DNA of 4,189 bases from a virus. Taxonomy: Duplodnaviria > Heunggongvirae > Uroviricota > Caudoviricetes. The notes under the pieces are model-generated. The model was given only the letters and a program-made list of their open reading frames with translations. It was not told the DNA's origin and ran no database searches. Location: IMG/VR virus record IMGVR_UViG_2663762627_000001, positions 1 through 4,189 of that record. One strand, 5' to 3'. A program made the position numbers and the translations under genes. Of this stretch, positions 1 to 4,189 are shown piece after piece (the first letter of the stretch is position 1; the number at the start of each line of letters is the position of its first letter).

Positions 1-231
1 GCCTTTGAGGTCGTGGTATGGATGACGGATGGCTGGCCGCTGTATGAATCCCGCCTGAAGGGAAAGCTGCACGTAATCAGCAAGCGTTACACTCAGCGCA
101 TTGAGCGACATAACCTGAATCTGAGACAACATCTGGCAAGGCTGGGACGGAAGTCACTGTCGTTCTCAAAATCGGTGGAGCTGCATGACAAAGTCATCGG
201 GCATTATCTGAACATAAAACACTATCAGTAA
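1..231 (+). CDS. insB: IS1 transposase InsB, C-terminal portion (5'-partial; stop TAA at 229-231)
   Basis: In-frame translation from position 1; the ORF track entry 13..231 begins at an internal GTG. Protein-level recognition of the InsB C-terminus. Confidence 0.9.
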
Positions 232-246
232 GTTGGAGTCATTACC
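224..246. repeat. IS1 terminal inverted repeat (outer end at about 246)
   Basis: The 23 bp atcagtaagttggagtcattacc is the reverse complement of the IS1 terminal repeat GGTAATGACTCCAACTTATTGAT as recalled, with one mismatch. Confidence 0.75.
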
Positions 247-433
247 AGCCATATGTTTTGCGCATGACAGCCAGGAAGACCAGAAGCTGGTGCTGTGTTA
301 ATCCGGCCAGCATTACAGCTTCCAGCAACTCATTTGCAATGCGCGTATAACCATCATCGAGATCTGCCACGCGCGGCTCCTTTTGTGCCATATCCGGCAC
401 TGGAAAATTGAATATCTCAGCAGTGTTTGCCAT
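242..433 (-). pseudogene. Replication initiator O-like gene, N-terminal fragment only, interrupted by IS1
   Basis: The minus-strand product MANTAEIFNFPVPDMAQKEPRVADLDDGYTRIANELLEAVMLAGLTQHQLLVFLAVMRKTYGW aligns with the N-terminus of lambda O (…VADLDDGYARLSNMLLEA…LLAILRKTYGW, from memory). The frame stops at a TAA (242-244) lying inside the IS1 terminal repeat, directly after the W codon (245-247). Start assigned to the ATG at 433-431, which sits 4 nt after a GGGAGG ribosome-binding site; the ORF track's longer form starts at 523. Confidence 0.8.
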
Positions 434-519
434 AATTCCTCCCGCAATGAGTGCGTTACGATTTGCACCTGAAAGTCGGTTCTGTTCCCGCAGACCGGCT
501 TTCGCCATTTCTGAACCTG

Positions 520-1059
520 TCATATTGCCCCCAGCATGGTGGTAACCATCGCCATCAATGGACCAGCCAGATCAGGATCCACACGAAACATCGACACAAT
601 GCCTTCACTCATCTCCTTCAGTTTCTGGTGGCGTGGTGCGTTGAGAATGACCGCCTGTTTTGCCTCGCTGAGCTCCTTTTCCATTTCAACCAGTCGAGCC
701 ATGAAGCTATCCTGCTCAACCAGGTGGCCGCGATATTTCAGCGGTAGTACTGCCAGAATTGCTGGAGTCAGTTCACGCACGTTATTTCGGTATTTTTCAG
801 AATCGAATTTGTTATCGAGAAAGCGGAACAGCTTCTGGCGTGCACGACTGACATCATCAGGAAAATCGATAGTGCCGCCGCCCTGTGCTCGATACTCATT
901 CACAATGAGTGCGGCAACGACATCCTGATTATCTACAGCCGACCAGGCGCGGACGGCATCACGGATTTTTTCGTGGCCTGGCACCTGTTTTATTTGAGAA
1001 CGATTTATCACCGCAGTCGGGATAAATCCGCTAGTCTGTTGGTATGTAATTGGTTGCAT
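520..1059 (-). CDS. CII-position regulatory protein, probably YdaT-family (179 aa from the ATG at 1059; the ORF track's 190-aa form starts at 1092)
   Basis: Long minus-strand ORF directly downstream of cro and upstream of the O-like gene. The ATG at 1059-1057 has an AAGGA ribosome-binding site 9 nt upstream; the ATG at 1092 has none. Motifs EYRAQGGG and LTPAILAVLP are reminiscent of YdaT-family proteins (family assignment from memory, not verified). Its stop overlaps the upstream in-frame ATG of the O frame in an ATGA arrangement (520-523). Confidence 0.6.
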   Translation of the reverse strand: MQPITYQQTSGFIPTAVINRSQIKQVPGHEKIRDAVRAWSAVDNQDVVAALIVNEYRAQGGGTIDFPDDVSRARQKLFRFLDNKFDSEKYRNNVRELTPAILAVLPLKYRGHLVEQDSFMARLVEMEKELSEAKQAVILNAPRHQKLKEMSEGIVSMFRVDPDLAGPLMAMVTTMLGAI

Positions 1060-1082
1060 AATTGATTCCTTTAGTCTGAATT

Positions 1083-1128
1083 GACTGTTCATCAGTCTGT
1101 TAAGTTGATTGCTTATTGTTAAAGAACG
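1083..1128 (-). promoter_or_regulatory. Candidate nutR-like site: boxA-like element plus a small hairpin, between cro and the CII-position gene
   Basis: Minus strand 1128->1115 reads CGTTCTTTAACAAT, one mismatch from the rrn/lambdoid boxA core (T/C)GCTCTTTAACAA as I recall it. 17 nt further downstream, GACTG-ATGAA-CAGTC (1097->1083) forms a 5-bp stem with a 5-nt loop, the same geometry as boxB. Position matches lambda nutR. Confidence 0.35.
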
Positions 1129-1140
1129 TGAAAAGGAAAT

Positions 1141-1371
1141 TTAAGCTGCATTCTTTTCGGTATGTGGAAACAACTTCGGAAGATCCGGGCGAATCTGGTA
1201 TGCCTTAACTACCCCGCCAGTAGCCGTAACAATGCTGCCGACATGTTCAGGGGATACCTTTGCTTTGTTGTGTAGCCACTTATAGACGGCCTGCTGTGAA
1301 ACTTCGCAGGCATCGCCCAGTTTCTTTTGTGAACCGACGATATTGATCGCGGTTTTGATTGCTGGGTTCAT
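1141..1371 (-). CDS. cro: Cro-like HTH repressor (76 aa)
   Basis: Minus-strand ORF divergent from the repressor gene, with a GGAGG ribosome-binding site 5 nt upstream of the ATG (1371-1369). The product MNPAIKTAINIVGSQKKLGDACEVSQQAVYKWLHNKAKV…VKAYQIRPDLPKLFPHTEK has the same pattern as lambda Cro (…[20 protein letters not shown]…VYAEEVKPFPSNKK). Confidence 0.85.
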   Translation of the reverse strand: MNPAIKTAINIVGSQKKLGDACEVSQQAVYKWLHNKAKVSPEHVGSIVTATGGVVKAYQIRPDLPKLFPHTEKNAA

Positions 1372-1398
1372 AACAACCTCCGTGGTTAACTTGAATTA

Positions 1399-1470
1399 AG
1401 ATTAAAACCATGGTTGTTTTTAGTCAACAACCATTTTCGTTTGATGAAATAAAACCTTGGTTGTACATTT
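1399..1470. promoter_or_regulatory. OR-like divergent control region with three operator candidates and PR-like/PRM-like promoters
   Basis: Two perfect 10-bp palindromes, AACCATGGTT (1406-1415) and AACCTTGGTT (1453-1462), flank a half-site-only copy AACCATTTTC (1429-1438); centre spacing is 23 and 24 bp. Minus-strand TTGACT (1427-1422) followed by an AT-rich -10 candidate TAATCT (1404-1399) would drive cro. Plus-strand TTGATG (1441-1446), a 17-bp spacer and TACATT (1464-1469) would place a transcription start at about the cI ATG, giving a leaderless message as at lambda PRM. Confidence 0.5.
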
Positions 1471-1475
1471 GGTCT

Positions 1476-2165
1476 ATGAAAACAACACTCTCAGAAAGAC
1501 TTAAAGAAGCCAGATTAGCGCGAGGCCTTACACAAAAGGCGCTTGGGGATATGGTCGGGGTTAGCCAGGCTGCCATTCAGAAAATCGAAACAGGGAAAGC
1601 TAACCAAACAACTAAAATCGTGGAGATCGCAAACGCTTTAGGTGTGCGCGCAGAATGGTTATCTTCTGGCGTTGGAAATATGTCAGACAGTACCGTGCAA
1701 CCAATACAATCAACTGTCAGCCATTCAAAATACTTCAAGATTGACGTTCTTGATATAGAAGTCAGTGCCGGACCGGGTGTCATCAACCGTGAGTTTGTGG
1801 AAGTTCTACGCTCGGTTGAGTACTCGTTTGACGATGCTCGTCACATGTTCGATGGCAGGAAGGCGGAAAATATCCGCATCATTAACGTGCGCGGTGACAG
1901 CATGTCAGGGACGATCGAACCAGGTGACCTGCTGTTCGTTGATATCACTGTTAAATCTTTCGACGGTGATGGCATCTATGCGTTTCTGTACGACGACACT
2001 GCCCATGTAAAACGTCTTCAAATGATGAAGGATAAGCTGCTGGTTATCTCTGATAACAAGAGCTACTCGCCGTGGGACCCGATCGAGAAAGACGAGATGA
2101 ACCGGGTGTTCATATTCGGTAAGGTCATTGGAAGCATGCCGCAGACGTACAGGAAGCATGGTTAA
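1476..2165 (+). CDS. cI: CI-like prophage repressor (N-terminal HTH, C-terminal S24/LexA-type autoprotease domain), 229 aa
   Basis: The HTH segment LSERLKEARLARGLTQKALGDMVGVSQAAIQKIETGK begins right after the ATG at 1476. The C-terminal half carries a candidate Ala-Gly cleavage site (VSAGPG), the catalytic serine motif GDSM and the lysine motif HVKRL. The ORF track's upstream start at 1410 would run through the operators, so 1476 is preferred. Stop TAA at 2163-2165. Confidence 0.9.
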   Translation: MKTTLSERLKEARLARGLTQKALGDMVGVSQAAIQKIETGKANQTTKIVEIANALGVRAEWLSSGVGNMSDSTVQPIQSTVSHSKYFKIDVLDIEVSAGPGVINREFVEVLRSVEYSFDDARHMFDGRKAENIRIINVRGDSMSGTIEPGDLLFVDITVKSFDGDGIYAFLYDDTAHVKRLQMMKDKLLVISDNKSYSPWDPIEKDEMNRVFIFGKVIGSMPQTYRKHG

Positions 2166-2340
2166 TTTATCTACGACTTAAGGGAGCGAAGGTTAAGGTT
2201 TATACCACTCGGATTAGATATTGCACTAAATTCTCTATAAGAACGCCAAATCTGTTTGCATATTTCAGTAAATATTCTCGTTGTTAGCTGAAATTTGTTG
2301 CTACTGTCAGCAAAATGTCCCCCTATCTCGTAGCGGTTTT

Positions 2341-2386
2341 TATTTCGAATCATTATGTTAAGATGTTTCTGATTATAATGAATGGA
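2341..2386 (+). promoter_or_regulatory. Candidate promoter for the lipoprotein gene
   Basis: Perfect TATAAT at 2374-2379 with TG at 2370-2371, 16 bp upstream of the ATG at 2395, in an AT-rich intergenic tract. No good -35 hexamer; the leader would be very short. Confidence 0.3.
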
Positions 2387-2394
2387 AACATAAA

Positions 2395-2775
2395 ATGAGA
2401 AAAATCCTAATCGCTGCCATGATGGCATCTCTATTGGCTGGGTGTGCTTCTTCAGGCAACCAGCAACTCAAAAATGAAACTGAAATTAGTGTCCAGTCTA
2501 AACTTCAGGAAGGTAAAACAACCAAGAATGAGGTTAAATCTTACTTTGGTTCTCCTGATGCTGTTTCATATACTGACAGTGGAAACGAGATCTGGAAGTA
2601 CGCCTTTGCAAAAGTAAAAGTTAATGGCACCACTTTTATTCCATTCTATGGATTATTCCATAATGGAACGAACGGTACGAAAAAAGAACTTACTATTCTT
2701 TTTAACGATGACACGATTAAGAAATACACAATGTCAGAAACCCAAATAAACTCGAAATCAGGTTGGGCTGACTGA
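2395..2775 (+). CDS. Outer-membrane lipoprotein of unknown function (126 aa), in the rexAB-equivalent slot; fold possibly BamE/SmpA-OmlA-like
   Basis: Signal peptide MRKILIAAMMASLLAG followed by lipobox LAGC; the residue after the Cys is Ala, consistent with outer-membrane sorting. Mature region has a pattern resembling BamE: GKTTKNEV…FGSPD…EIWKY…ELTILFNDD versus BamE GMTQQQV…LGTP…NTWFY…TLTLTFNSS. Codon usage is clearly more AT-rich than flanking genes, and the gene has its own terminator. Confidence 0.85.
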   Translation: MRKILIAAMMASLLAGCASSGNQQLKNETEISVQSKLQEGKTTKNEVKSYFGSPDAVSYTDSGNEIWKYAFAKVKVNGTTFIPFYGLFHNGTNGTKKELTILFNDDTIKKYTMSETQINSKSGWAD

Positions 2776-2783
2776 TAATCATA

Positions 2784-2810
2784 CCCGGCAACCGCGCCGG
2801 GTTTTCTTTT
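2784..2810 (+). terminator. Rho-independent terminator after the lipoprotein gene
   Basis: Stem CCCGGC (2784-2789) / GCCGGG (2796-2801) with loop AACCGC, followed by TTTTCTTTT (2802-2810). Confidence 0.8.
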
Positions 2811-2904
2811 CCTCCCCCTCATAACTCATACCGTCCAAAAAACCACCACACCTCACTTCAGTTATCGCTATGCGATGCAAGTCACAAAATAAATCCATCC
2901 TAAA

Positions 2905-2985
2905 TACAACCAGTTATATTTAAAACAACCGACAAAACAACTTTTGTTGTTGACGATAAAACAACTATAGTTTTAAATAAATTCA
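2905..2985 (+). promoter_or_regulatory. pL/OL-like region: candidate promoter and repeated operator-like motifs
   Basis: TTGACG (2950-2955), a 17-bp spacer, then TTAAAT (2973-2978). The ACAACC-type motif seen in OR recurs here: TACAACCA (2905-2912), AAAACAACC (2922-2930), the inverted repeat AACAAC-TTTT-GTTGTT (2936-2951) overlapping the -35, and AAAACAAC (2958-2965). Confidence 0.4.
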
Positions 2986-3034
2986 TCGCAACGACACAAC
3001 GATACGGTAACCACCTGTTTCACCGTTGCGATGA
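2983..3034. repeat. Perfect 11-bp inverted repeat with a 30-bp spacer in the pL leader
   Basis: TCATCGCAACG (2983-2993) and its exact reverse complement CGTTGCGATGA (3024-3034), immediately downstream of the candidate pL -10. Confidence 0.7.
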
Positions 3035-3255
3035 CCGCTTAGATCCGCAGTTTGAATTTCAGCAGGCTTCGGGGAGTGCGAGGGGTGAAACGGACGCGTG
3101 AACGTCGGTGTGACCAGCTGAAATCAACACAACACTTTATACCTCAGTCGCTTCAACGAGGCGGCTTAGTTATGACAACCGGCGGCCATCCACCGCCTGA
3201 ATACGCGCAGAAGTCTCTATATGTTCAGCAGCCCAGCTTACGGGCAGGAGTTTTT

Positions 3256-3462
3256 ATGGTTCATCAACATTACGGAACGCAGACCGTTAATCGCGGCGCG
3301 GTCATGCCAGGAATGCTGGTCAAACACAAAGATGGTACCTGGACTGCATCAGCTAATTTACGCGGGCGGCTTTATCTGCATCGCGGCATCGAGCGCACTT
3401 ATACCCGTGATTTGCTCGTAGAAGTTTTTCTCGACGGACGCGGTAACGGCCTGAATCACTAA
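3256..3462 (+). CDS. Hypothetical small protein (68 aa) in the N/kil position upstream of gam; may be the C-terminal part of a longer ORF
   Basis: ATG at 3256 has an AGGAG ribosome-binding site 5 nt upstream; stop TAA at 3460-3462. The same open frame extends upstream to a TTG at 3052, with a GTG at 3085 (GGGGAG 8 nt upstream) and an ATG at 3172 (GAGG upstream). Product MVHQHYGTQTVNRGAVMPGMLVKHKDGTWTASANLRGRLYLHRGIERTYTRDLLVEVFLDGRGNGLNH has no family I can recognise. Confidence 0.45.
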   Translation: MVHQHYGTQTVNRGAVMPGMLVKHKDGTWTASANLRGRLYLHRGIERTYTRDLLVEVFLDGRGNGLNH

Positions 3463-3538
3463 CCCCCCTTTCCTGTTTTCCTAATCAGCCTGGCATTTCG
3501 CGGGCGATATTTTCACAGCCATTTTCAGGAGTTCAGCC

Positions 3539-3835
3539 ATGAACGCTTATTACATTCAGGATCGTCTTGAGGCTCAGAGCTGGGCGCGTCACTACCAGCA
3601 GATCGCCCGTGAAGAGAAAGAGGCAGAACTGGCAGACGACATGGAAAAAGGCCTGCCCCAGCATTTGTTTGAATCGCTCTGCATCGATCATTTACAACGC
3701 TGCGGGGCCAGCAAAAAAGCCATTACCCGTGCATTTGATGACGATGTTGAGTTTCAGGAGCGCATGGCAGAACACATCCGGTACATGGTTGAAACCATTG
3801 CTCACCATCAGGTTGATATTGATTCAGAGGTATAA
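3539..3835 (+). CDS. gam: Gam, host RecBCD nuclease inhibitor (98-aa GamS form)
   Basis: Product [98 protein letters not shown] is near-identical to lambda Gam as recalled. AGGAG ribosome-binding site 8 nt upstream; stop TAA at 3833-3835. Confidence 0.95.
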
Positions 3836-3840
3836 AACGG

Positions 3841-4189
3841 ATGAGTACAGCACTCGCAACGCTGGCTGGGAAGCTGGCTGAACGTGTCGGCATGGATTCT
3901 GTCGACCCACAGGAACTGATCACCACTCTTCGCCAGACGGCATTTAAAGGTGATGCCAGCGATGCGCAGTTCATCGCATTGTTGATCGTCGCCAACCAGT
4001 ACGGCCTTAATCCGTGGACGAAAGAAATTTACGCCTTCCCTGACAAGCAGAACGGCATCGTTCCGGTGGTGGGCGTTGATGGCTGGTCCCGCATCATCAA
4101 TGAAAACCAGCAGTTTGATGGCATGGACTTTGAGCAGGACAATGAATCCTGCACATGCCGGATTTACCGCAAGGACCGTAATCATCCGA
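3841..4189 (+). CDS. bet: Bet (Red-beta) single-strand annealing recombinase, N-terminal 116 codons (3'-partial at window end)
   Basis: Product MSTALATLAGKLAERVGMDSVDPQELITTLRQTAFKGDASDAQFIALLIVANQYGLNPWTKEIYAFPDKQNGIVPVVGVDGWSRIINENQQFDGMDFEQDNESCTCRIYRKDRNHP matches lambda Bet as recalled; GAGG 10 nt upstream of the ATG. Confidence 0.95.
   Translation, partial: MSTALATLAGKLAERVGMDSVDPQELITTLRQTAFKGDASDAQFIALLIVANQYGLNPWTKEIYAFPDKQNGIVPVVGVDGWSRIINENQQFDGMDFEQDNESCTCRIYRKDRNHP

Follow-up and report, generated by a model that had tools for sequence, protein, structure and literature searches.

In a 4,189-nucleotide stretch of phage DNA (positions 1 to 4,189 of IMG/VR virus record IMGVR_UViG_2663762627_000001, Caudoviricetes; below, the window), which covers the immunity and early region of a lambdoid prophage and whose plus strand corresponds to lambda's leftward direction, we identified a structured RNA element of 94 nt near the 5′ end of the early-left transcript. 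It is one of two conserved structured RNA modules in the leader of this operon, located at 3030-3123 and 3138-3255; we refer to the first as the 94-nt element (module A) and to the second as module B. The only conserved protein of the region 2811-3538 is a Kil protein of 68 residues translated from ATG 3256. The gene is of an already known Kil type, and the compact operon most likely works through an uncharacterised structured RNA in the putL position; the conserved structured RNA of the leader had been missed by the initial annotation of this DNA. Comparisons among phage genomes suggest that the element is an antiterminator RNA, and we put the probability of this reading at roughly 0.4-0.5. 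Taken as a whole, the description of 2811-3538 as the promoter-proximal part of an N-less early-left operon, composed of OL/pL, an untranslated leader of about 270 nt, a KilR-type kil and then gam, has in our judgement about an even chance of being correct; the compact N-less operon as such is real and common.

A conserved structure is indicated by the comparison of natural variants with RNAalifold. The element has a length of exactly 94 nt in 19 of its 20 distinct versions and forms two stems with a conserved G-rich core between them (Table 1). Among 19 variants, two pairs of stem I display two-sided changes (A-U to C-G and G-C to A-U), and two pairs of stem II have each changed from A-U to G-C, these changes having arisen in different lineages. 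As many as 93.9 % of the cells were paired, compared with 22-44 % when the partners were slid. None of 500 shuffles matched the observed covariation score of the element, in a control that ignores relatedness and with few independent lineages at hand. The minimum free energy fold of the whole leader was no better than that of shuffles (z = -0.25), and the comparative analysis of sub-elements alone was informative. A pseudoknot between UUUCAGC (3057-3063) and GCUGAAA (3117-3123) is less favoured: three wobble changes fit it, no double compensation was seen, and RNAalifold favours an extended stem I. When the whole window was scanned against Rfam at E ≤ 10, only noise came up and nothing fell within the leader proper. 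Known RNAs did not account for the leader either, as the AgvB/AsxR anti-small RNAs and the Pas small RNAs map near pR′ or in the late region instead, and the region upstream of kilR in the Rac prophage, KilS included, is not homologous.

What points to antitermination is the place which the element occupies. The put RNAs of HK022 and its relatives act in cis on RNA polymerase without any phage protein and depend on the β′ zinc-binding domain, where the rpoC mutation Y75N blocks put. The record of phage HK639 has an annotated 'putL-like antiterminator RNA' and no annotated putR; an 'M3-like RNA' is annotated there after cII (L137, 2611-2670). Among IMG/VR leaders with the 5′ flank GTTAGCCAGCGGCGAAGTGGAG, 105 copies continue into the put core and 13 carry the element in the same slot. 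The 3′ flank TTTACCAGCAGCTCTTTGCGAGGGGCTGACGG then follows in several of the 13, and one of them (L376) even shares the first gene of HK639. In the IMG/VR contigs of L376 and L107 the HK639 putL core has been naturally replaced by the 94-nt element. The copies of the element in HK639-type leaders are about 82 % identical to that of the window, and the aligned leaders of both types have in common a start motif, CATCG(A/C)AACGA(A/C)ACA, near +1. In L026, putL is followed directly by module B, which is the compact layout of the window except that put stands where the element would be. Out of 324 phage loci, 69 contain the element and 177 the put core, and none contains both.

The resemblance to put extends to several general properties. 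Both RNAs belong to the 5′ end of the pL transcript in lambdoid phages that lack N (the element 45-139 nt past the predicted +1), both are about 70-95 nt long, fold into two irregular stem-loops and contain a G-rich segment that is conserved, and both fill the same slot between identical flanks in a mutually exclusive manner. However, the element lacks the put blocks GAACGGCGCG, UAAACCAUGCGUCGG and CGGCAAU, is longer at 94 nt, has no second copy in the pR operon and is far commoner in E. coli (2210 genomes vs 131). BLAST searches with HK022 putL and putR against the window and its nearest relative, phage PhiR26_1, gave short chance words only, and a resemblance over 21 nt between the element (CUUCGGGGAGUGCGAGGGGU) and HK022 putL (GCGUCGGGAGCGCGGCGGGU) is weak evidence. 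The other known RNA-only processive antiterminator is EAR (eps-associated RNA) of Bacillus, to which PMC8632103 refers. As is suggested here for the element, EAR is a cis-acting structured operon-leader RNA proposed to make RNA polymerase terminator-resistant, but it belongs to another phylum, shows no sequence relation and is not phage-borne. By analogy with put, the element may constitute a second, sequence-unrelated class of self-sufficient antiterminator RNA that binds and reprograms E. coli RNA polymerase, a possibility that we hold tentatively and rate somewhat below even odds.

The leader itself is widespread. Its 270 nt are nearly invariant among 16 isolated viable phages, all of which carry the element, and its first 156 nt were present in 2210 of 5426 complete E. 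coli genomes (~40 %). The HK639-type put core was detected in 131 of the same 5426. No annotated feature lies under the leader match in 40 genomes, among the matches listed. Scanning genome contigs with the 18-mer core yielded chance matches in high-GC genomes only and no match in Enterobacteriaceae.

A need for read-through is visible in the operons of HK639 type that carry the element. In each of the six that were examined, the leader is separated from the later early-left genes by at least one strong intrinsic terminator, the first of them about 0.8-1.9 kb downstream of the element (e.g. ACCCGCTCCGGCGGGT-TTTTT, or GCCGCCTAAC(C/T)(A/G)GCGGC followed by a T-run); GCCGCCTAACCAGCGGCTTTTTT is likewise an example of a strong intrinsic terminator. 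Where the contig is long enough, module B, kil, gam and recT are found beyond the terminator. The first genes of these six operons vary and none looks N-like; in HK639, the annotated antiterminator of the corresponding operon is putL. The pL operon of PhiR26_1 also has a good terminator, at 2000-1986, ahead of a TraR-like gene and int. We propose that the 94-nt element, once transcribed from pL, would modify the transcribing RNA polymerase in cis and so enable it to read through downstream terminators, which is the role of putL in HK022 and HK639. Phages of the window type would then need no N protein for their left operon. The tL1-type terminator that usually precedes module B is absent from the window, so kil, gam and bet could be made here without antitermination, and the element would matter further down, e.g. 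at the terminator that PhiR26_1 has before its TraR-like gene and int region.

Several points weigh against an antiterminator. The putative role is proposed from the position, the exchange with put and the need for read-through. The covariation stems from about three clades, and the E. coli copies are 90-100 % identical. A put covariance model (R1) built from 19 put sequences scored HK022 putL with 91.6 bits, HK639 putL with 88.3 and HK022 putR with 47.7, and it recovered nothing in the window leader at E ≤ 10 with filters off; for this reason we do not count the element among the put RNAs. A model of the element (R2) recovered one copy in PhiR26_1 and no hit below E = 0.4 in 11 kb of the pR operon of that phage, again with filters off, and a BLAST search with the leader for a second copy elsewhere in the PhiR26_1 genome found none. 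As there is no copy after pR, antitermination of the pR operon is left unexplained. The terminator scan found no strong terminator between pL and bet in the window, and the element is therefore not obviously needed in this compact operon. Finally, searches of the literature on put-like elements and N-less lambdoid leaders brought up no description of the element; variants of this kind may have been noted earlier by King et al. 2011 (J Bacteriol 193:5784).

The same data leave some room for a different functional RNA, which we consider rather unlikely: a cis-acting leader that governs how the toxic kil message is stabilised, processed or translated, a nut-like binding site for a phage or host protein, or the source of a trans-acting small RNA or sponge, read-through being achieved in some other way. 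What the data show is structure and conservation, the covariance model gives no similarity to put, and there is a single copy per genome. CA-rich runs stand on either side of the element, CGACACAACG at 2992-3001 and CAACACAACAC at 3124-3135, and they look similar to the CA-rich motifs to which the small RNA GcvB binds with its GU-rich seed. The kilR gene of Rac, too, has a small RNA upstream, KilS, which is unrelated in sequence. Moreover, PMC5793797 describes Rho/NusG-dependent termination as limiting kilR expression in Rac. However, the element precedes first genes that are unrelated to each other (an HNH-type nuclease, a homologue of HK639_45, a TerB-like protein, kil), which makes gene-specific translational control unlikely, and no conserved candidate partner protein adjoins it. 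Its exact fit to the put-core slot, with identical flanks and never together with put, also argues for an antiterminator. We regard it as improbable that the leader has no function of its own and reflects the recent spread of a prophage module, or a homologous linker for module exchange, with pL running without antitermination. The near identity of the E. coli copies, kil being about equally conserved, would agree with such a spread, and so would the absence of a strong pL-bet terminator in the window and the z-score of the whole-leader fold. It is difficult to reconcile with the copies of 82 % identity, which hold the exact length and in which double changes restore pairs in two stems, or with the controls with slid partners, where paired cells drop from 94 % to 22-44 %. 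The element is also retained in HK639-type leaders whose operons have strong terminators, and module B occurs with at least seven covarying stem sequences.

According to the initial annotation, the long open reading frame (ORF) of the region could be a divergent N-like antiterminator, an idea that is refuted by the comparative data. The ORF 3052-3462 (TTG start, 136 residues) with its in-frame ATG 3256 exists as annotated, and AGGAG supports the internal start. It is not the sole open frame, as had been stated, since small ORFs are also present at 3221-3421 (plus) and 3358-3459 (minus), both without any support. The arginine-rich stretch noted in its translation, RLRGVRGVKRTRERRCDQ, is there as well. 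It is the translation of 3064-3117, i.e. of a span from the 3′ half of stem I through the core to stem II, and it arises because the G/C-rich structured RNA gives CGG, CGA, AGG and CGU codons. For an N-like antiterminator fused to Kil, which would start at TTG 3052 or GTG 3085 and bind an RNA hairpin through the arginine-rich motif, one could cite the open long frame in the window, the resemblance of KRTRERR to the lambda N motif RRRERR, the long forms annotated as 'Kil' in some phage records, and the replacement of GTG 3085 by ATG in three variants. However, residues 1-68 of the extension have no family match in Pfam, NCBIfam or PHROG, and the long form gave no BLASTP alignment with the N proteins of lambda and phi80 at E ≤ 100. 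Among 40 distinct natural versions of 3052-3462, variable sites in the extension are distributed 11:8:10 over the three codon positions, that is without bias, and the long frame is broken in 20 versions by indels of 1, 2 and 5 nt and by an in-frame TAG, which is present in 14 variants. Phages Turner and PhiR30_1 have 1-nt indels directly before ATG 3256, and in other phages the same sequence is non-coding, with stops in the part of the frame that runs through module B. No Shine-Dalgarno sequence was seen ahead of TTG 3052 on inspection, neither nutL nor boxB was found, RefSeq calls the form of 68 residues, and the frame upstream of 3256 is open by chance in 6.9 % of dinucleotide shuffles. On this evidence the upstream 68 codons are not conserved as coding sequence. 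The long form has no homology to N and the short form clearly belongs to the Kil family, the outcome that had been named in advance as speaking against an N-like protein. The second suggestion made for this ORF, that the operon has no N and encodes in the kil position a protein of unknown function, was right about both N and kil; the function is that of a KilR-type FtsZ inhibitor.

The remaining argument for N was a boxA-like sequence near cro. The motif does exist: the minus strand reads CGTTCTTTAACAA at 1116-1128, with two mismatches to the boxA of rrn operons, and close relatives have CGCTCTTTAACAA at this site, which is a near-perfect boxA. That it implies an N-type antiterminator does not follow, as the same leader also pairs with the boxA-free 4A7-type immunity module, whose cro-cII spacer measures 30 nt, and a search of the pL leader recovered no boxA that could form a nutL. 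BoxA alone may recruit host Nus factors, as in rrn operons, and the cro boxA does not imply N; it may recruit Nus factors here without N. An apparent boxB hairpin by the cro boxA results from a 12-nt insertion, AACAGACTGATG, which is private to the window and lies in the cro-cII spacer (1060-1140, minus). Paired nut sites with boxA and boxB after both pL and pR are absent, the boxA-like sequence occurring after cro only. In common with lambda N and its nutL and nutR sites, the window has an ORF that starts in the N position right after pL, an arginine-rich conceptual translation and a boxA-like sequence after cro, but it differs in having no homology to N, no conserved frame, no conserved boxB and no nutL. 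As annotated, 2811-3538 contains no recognisable N, ral, sieB or cIII (Pfam, NCBIfam and PHROGs), and about 730 bp separate the lipoprotein terminator (2783-2812) from gam (3539), which is the whole promoter-proximal part of the pL operon. No N is annotated in the complete genome of PhiR26_1, and tblastn of this genome with lambda N, phi80 N and HK022 Nun gave no match.

Regarding kil, several comparisons agree on the same start and the same family. The 68-residue product matches PHROG 294 'Kil protein for bacterial septation inhibition' (E 1.3e-37) and, at E 1.8e-17 and from position 1 to 70 out of 73, NCBIfam NF008465 'FtsZ inhibitor protein'. As the latter score of 63 bits is below the curated cut-off of 92 bits, the protein is a relative and not an equivalog of NF008465. 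Beginning at residue 1 (M-V/I-x-x-H-Y/F-G-T), it can be aligned with Kil of HK225, phi80 and HK639, and an alignment of six Kil proteins has 16 invariant columns, from M1 on. RefSeq protein WP_000233576.1 is exactly the 68-residue product of ATG 3256, in strains L73 and O157:H7 F8797. A Shine-Dalgarno sequence, AGGAG (3246-3250), is located 5 nt before this ATG. In the 40 natural versions, variable sites of kil are distributed 2:5:21 over the codon positions, and the 68 codons are kept in 39; one variant has an ATT start codon. In phage D2 a lambda-type kil has been swapped in precisely at the ATG with the whole leader kept (L003 3388-3680, an interval that contains Ns in the record), which in sequence terms is a clean analogous-gene replacement at the kil start codon. 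The kil-gam junction is about 99 % identical in many Stx and lambda-like phages (query positions 681-763).

With Rac KilR the protein shares 36 % identity over 61 residues (E 9e-13), the start motif M(I/V)xxH(Y/F)GT and the setting in the early-left operon, upstream of recombination genes. It differs in a C-terminal tail that is 5 residues shorter and in an upstream region that bears no relation to that of Rac, KilS included. This small RNA is annotated about 175 nt upstream of Rac kilR (L384, E. coli K-12 Rac, 2406-2503) and is unrelated to the window leader apart from a common 9-mer, GGGAGTGCG. Rac KilR is described in PMC12482147 as blocking FtsZ rings, with MreB as a further target at higher levels, and filamentation or toxicity relieved by FtsZ is known for it from the same paper. 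Judging from their homology, the Kil of the window should block cell division in the same manner via FtsZ/MreB. The Kil of lambda (47 residues) is likewise encoded directly before gam and presumably plays the same role, but the two proteins are unrelated in sequence and thus analogous, not homologous. In GenBank phage records kil is annotated over-long and inconsistently, with 93-139 residues (L001 4310-4687, L009 4246-4665, L002 3393-3683, L006 1606-1887), and in Turner the annotation runs along a frameshifted frame. These over-long starts are probably errors. As a gene, kil is ordinary, and the starts in several phage records are worth fixing.

Module B is non-coding and consists of three hairpins, of which the first keeps its pairing with at least seven different stem sequences and shows double changes in five pairs. 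It was also found in phi80, HK225, HK639 and many IMG/VR contigs, as well as in Klebsiella, Enterobacter and P22-like Salmonella phages, so that it is conserved across phages of four enterobacterial genera. It stands nearly always directly after an intrinsic terminator (the tL1 position), which is missing in the window, and ahead of varied genes, and it ends at the ribosome-binding site of the next gene. The frame through it contains stop codons in other phages. A small ORF from ATG 3172 (MTTGGHPPP...) was rejected, as its start codon falls within the basal stem of hairpin 1, no Shine-Dalgarno sequence precedes it and early stops occur in other phages. Module B has no Rfam entry, and it may serve in the processing, stability or translation of antiterminated transcripts.

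Upstream of the leader, the operator half-site AAAACAAC(C/T) occurs 9 times, compared with 1.4 expected, and clusters at OR (1370-1487) and OL. Two immunity types with unlike operators could be aligned, and homology between them restarts exactly at the predicted pL +1. The hairpin proposed for the very 5′ end of the transcript is based on folding, without covariation. The spacer in front of OL is kept in both of the aligned immunity types; in some phage records a small minus-strand ORF is annotated in it. The terminator of the cI-lipoprotein unit was kept in all nine aligned phages.

The nearest relatives of the window are viable coliphages, PhiR26_1 (99.1 %) and then PhiR5_1, Turner, 4A7, 4C10, Perceval, 1W, 3W and D2, and the classified ones among the close relatives belong to the genus Bievrevirus. 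The end of the window at about 1-246 is presumably IS1. Only the N-terminal 93 codons of the replication gene O are left in the window, and the gene is intact in strain L73 and in PhiR26_1; with O cut by the IS1 end, this copy of the prophage should be replication-defective. The cargo in the rexAB position, between cI and OL, differs among otherwise near-identical phages (L002, L005, L007, L008 and L009 were compared). The window has a BamE-like lipoprotein there, PhiR5_1 a pair annotated as HipA/HipD, 4A7, D2 and IdasGreatGrand an ASCH-domain gene pair, and PhiR30_1 and Perceval other genes. The coordinates of all features are listed in Table 1.

Table 1. Features of the window, in window coordinates, with the motif or evidence on which each one is based.
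Feature	Position	Strand	Motif or basis
IS1 end (presumed)	~1-246		InsB C-terminus 13-231, terminal repeat ~225-246
Replication gene O remnant (O′)	242-523	minus	truncated by IS1 end
YdaT-like cII	520-1059	minus	
YdaS-like cro	1141-1371	minus	
S24/HTH cI repressor	1476-2165	plus	
BamE-like lipoprotein moron	2395-2775	plus	
Intrinsic terminator of cI-lipoprotein unit	2783-2812	plus	ACCCGGC-AACCGC-GCCGGGT then T-run; terminator scan
Conserved spacer upstream of OL	2813-2900	plus	inverted repeat ATCGC-TAT-GCGAT at 2864-2876
OL operators and pL	2903-2984	plus	half-site AAAACAAC(C/T) at 2903, 2922, 2934, 2958; palindrome AACAAC-TTTT-GTTGTT
Proposed pL	-35 2950-2955; -10 2973-2978; predicted +1 ~2985	plus	TTGACG; TTAAAT; read by eye
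5′ end of pL transcript	2985-3032	plus	terminal hairpin AUCGCAAC...GUUGCGAU; fold and alignment
94-nt structured RNA element, candidate put-analogous antiterminator	3030-3123	plus	covarying stems, put-core slot
Stem I	3045-3054 / 3063-3072	plus	RNAalifold
Stem II hairpin	3090-3096 / 3103-3109	plus	RNAalifold
G-rich conserved core	3070-3087	plus	CGGGGAGUGCGAGGGGUG, between stems
CA-rich linker	3124-3137	plus	UCAACACAACACUU, varies among relatives
Module B ('Part B'), three-hairpin non-coding element	3138-3255	plus	covariation, wide occurrence
Hairpin 1	3138-3174	plus	ATG 3172 in basal stem
Near-invariant segment between hairpins 1 and 2		plus	UUAUGACAACC
Hairpin 2	3181-3197	plus	GGCGG-CCAUCCA-CCGCC, nearly invariant
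Hairpin 3	3231-3245	plus	GCCC-AGCUUAC-GGGC, abuts kil Shine-Dalgarno AGGAG 3246-3250
kil, 68-residue KilR-family cell-division inhibitor	3256-3462	plus	profile matches, alignments, RefSeq start
kil-gam spacer	3463-3538	plus	gam ribosome-binding site CAGGAG 3526-3531
gam	3539-3835	plus	Pfam Gam, E 4.9e-64
bet	from 3841	plus	

To our knowledge, the put RNAs of HK022 and its relatives are the only case of RNA-only processive antitermination in Gram-negative bacteria, and the complex of put with the polymerase is a key structural model for how a nascent RNA reprograms RNA polymerase. The idea that the 94-nt element is an antiterminator can be tested directly by simple reporter fusions. If true, the element would solve the same problem in an independent way and could be compared with put both structurally and genetically. 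It would also explain how the left operon is expressed in very common E. coli prophages and in viable phages such as the Bievrevirus members 4A7 and Perceval and the PhiR phages, and it would be carried by the commonest left-operon leader of lambdoid prophages in E. coli.

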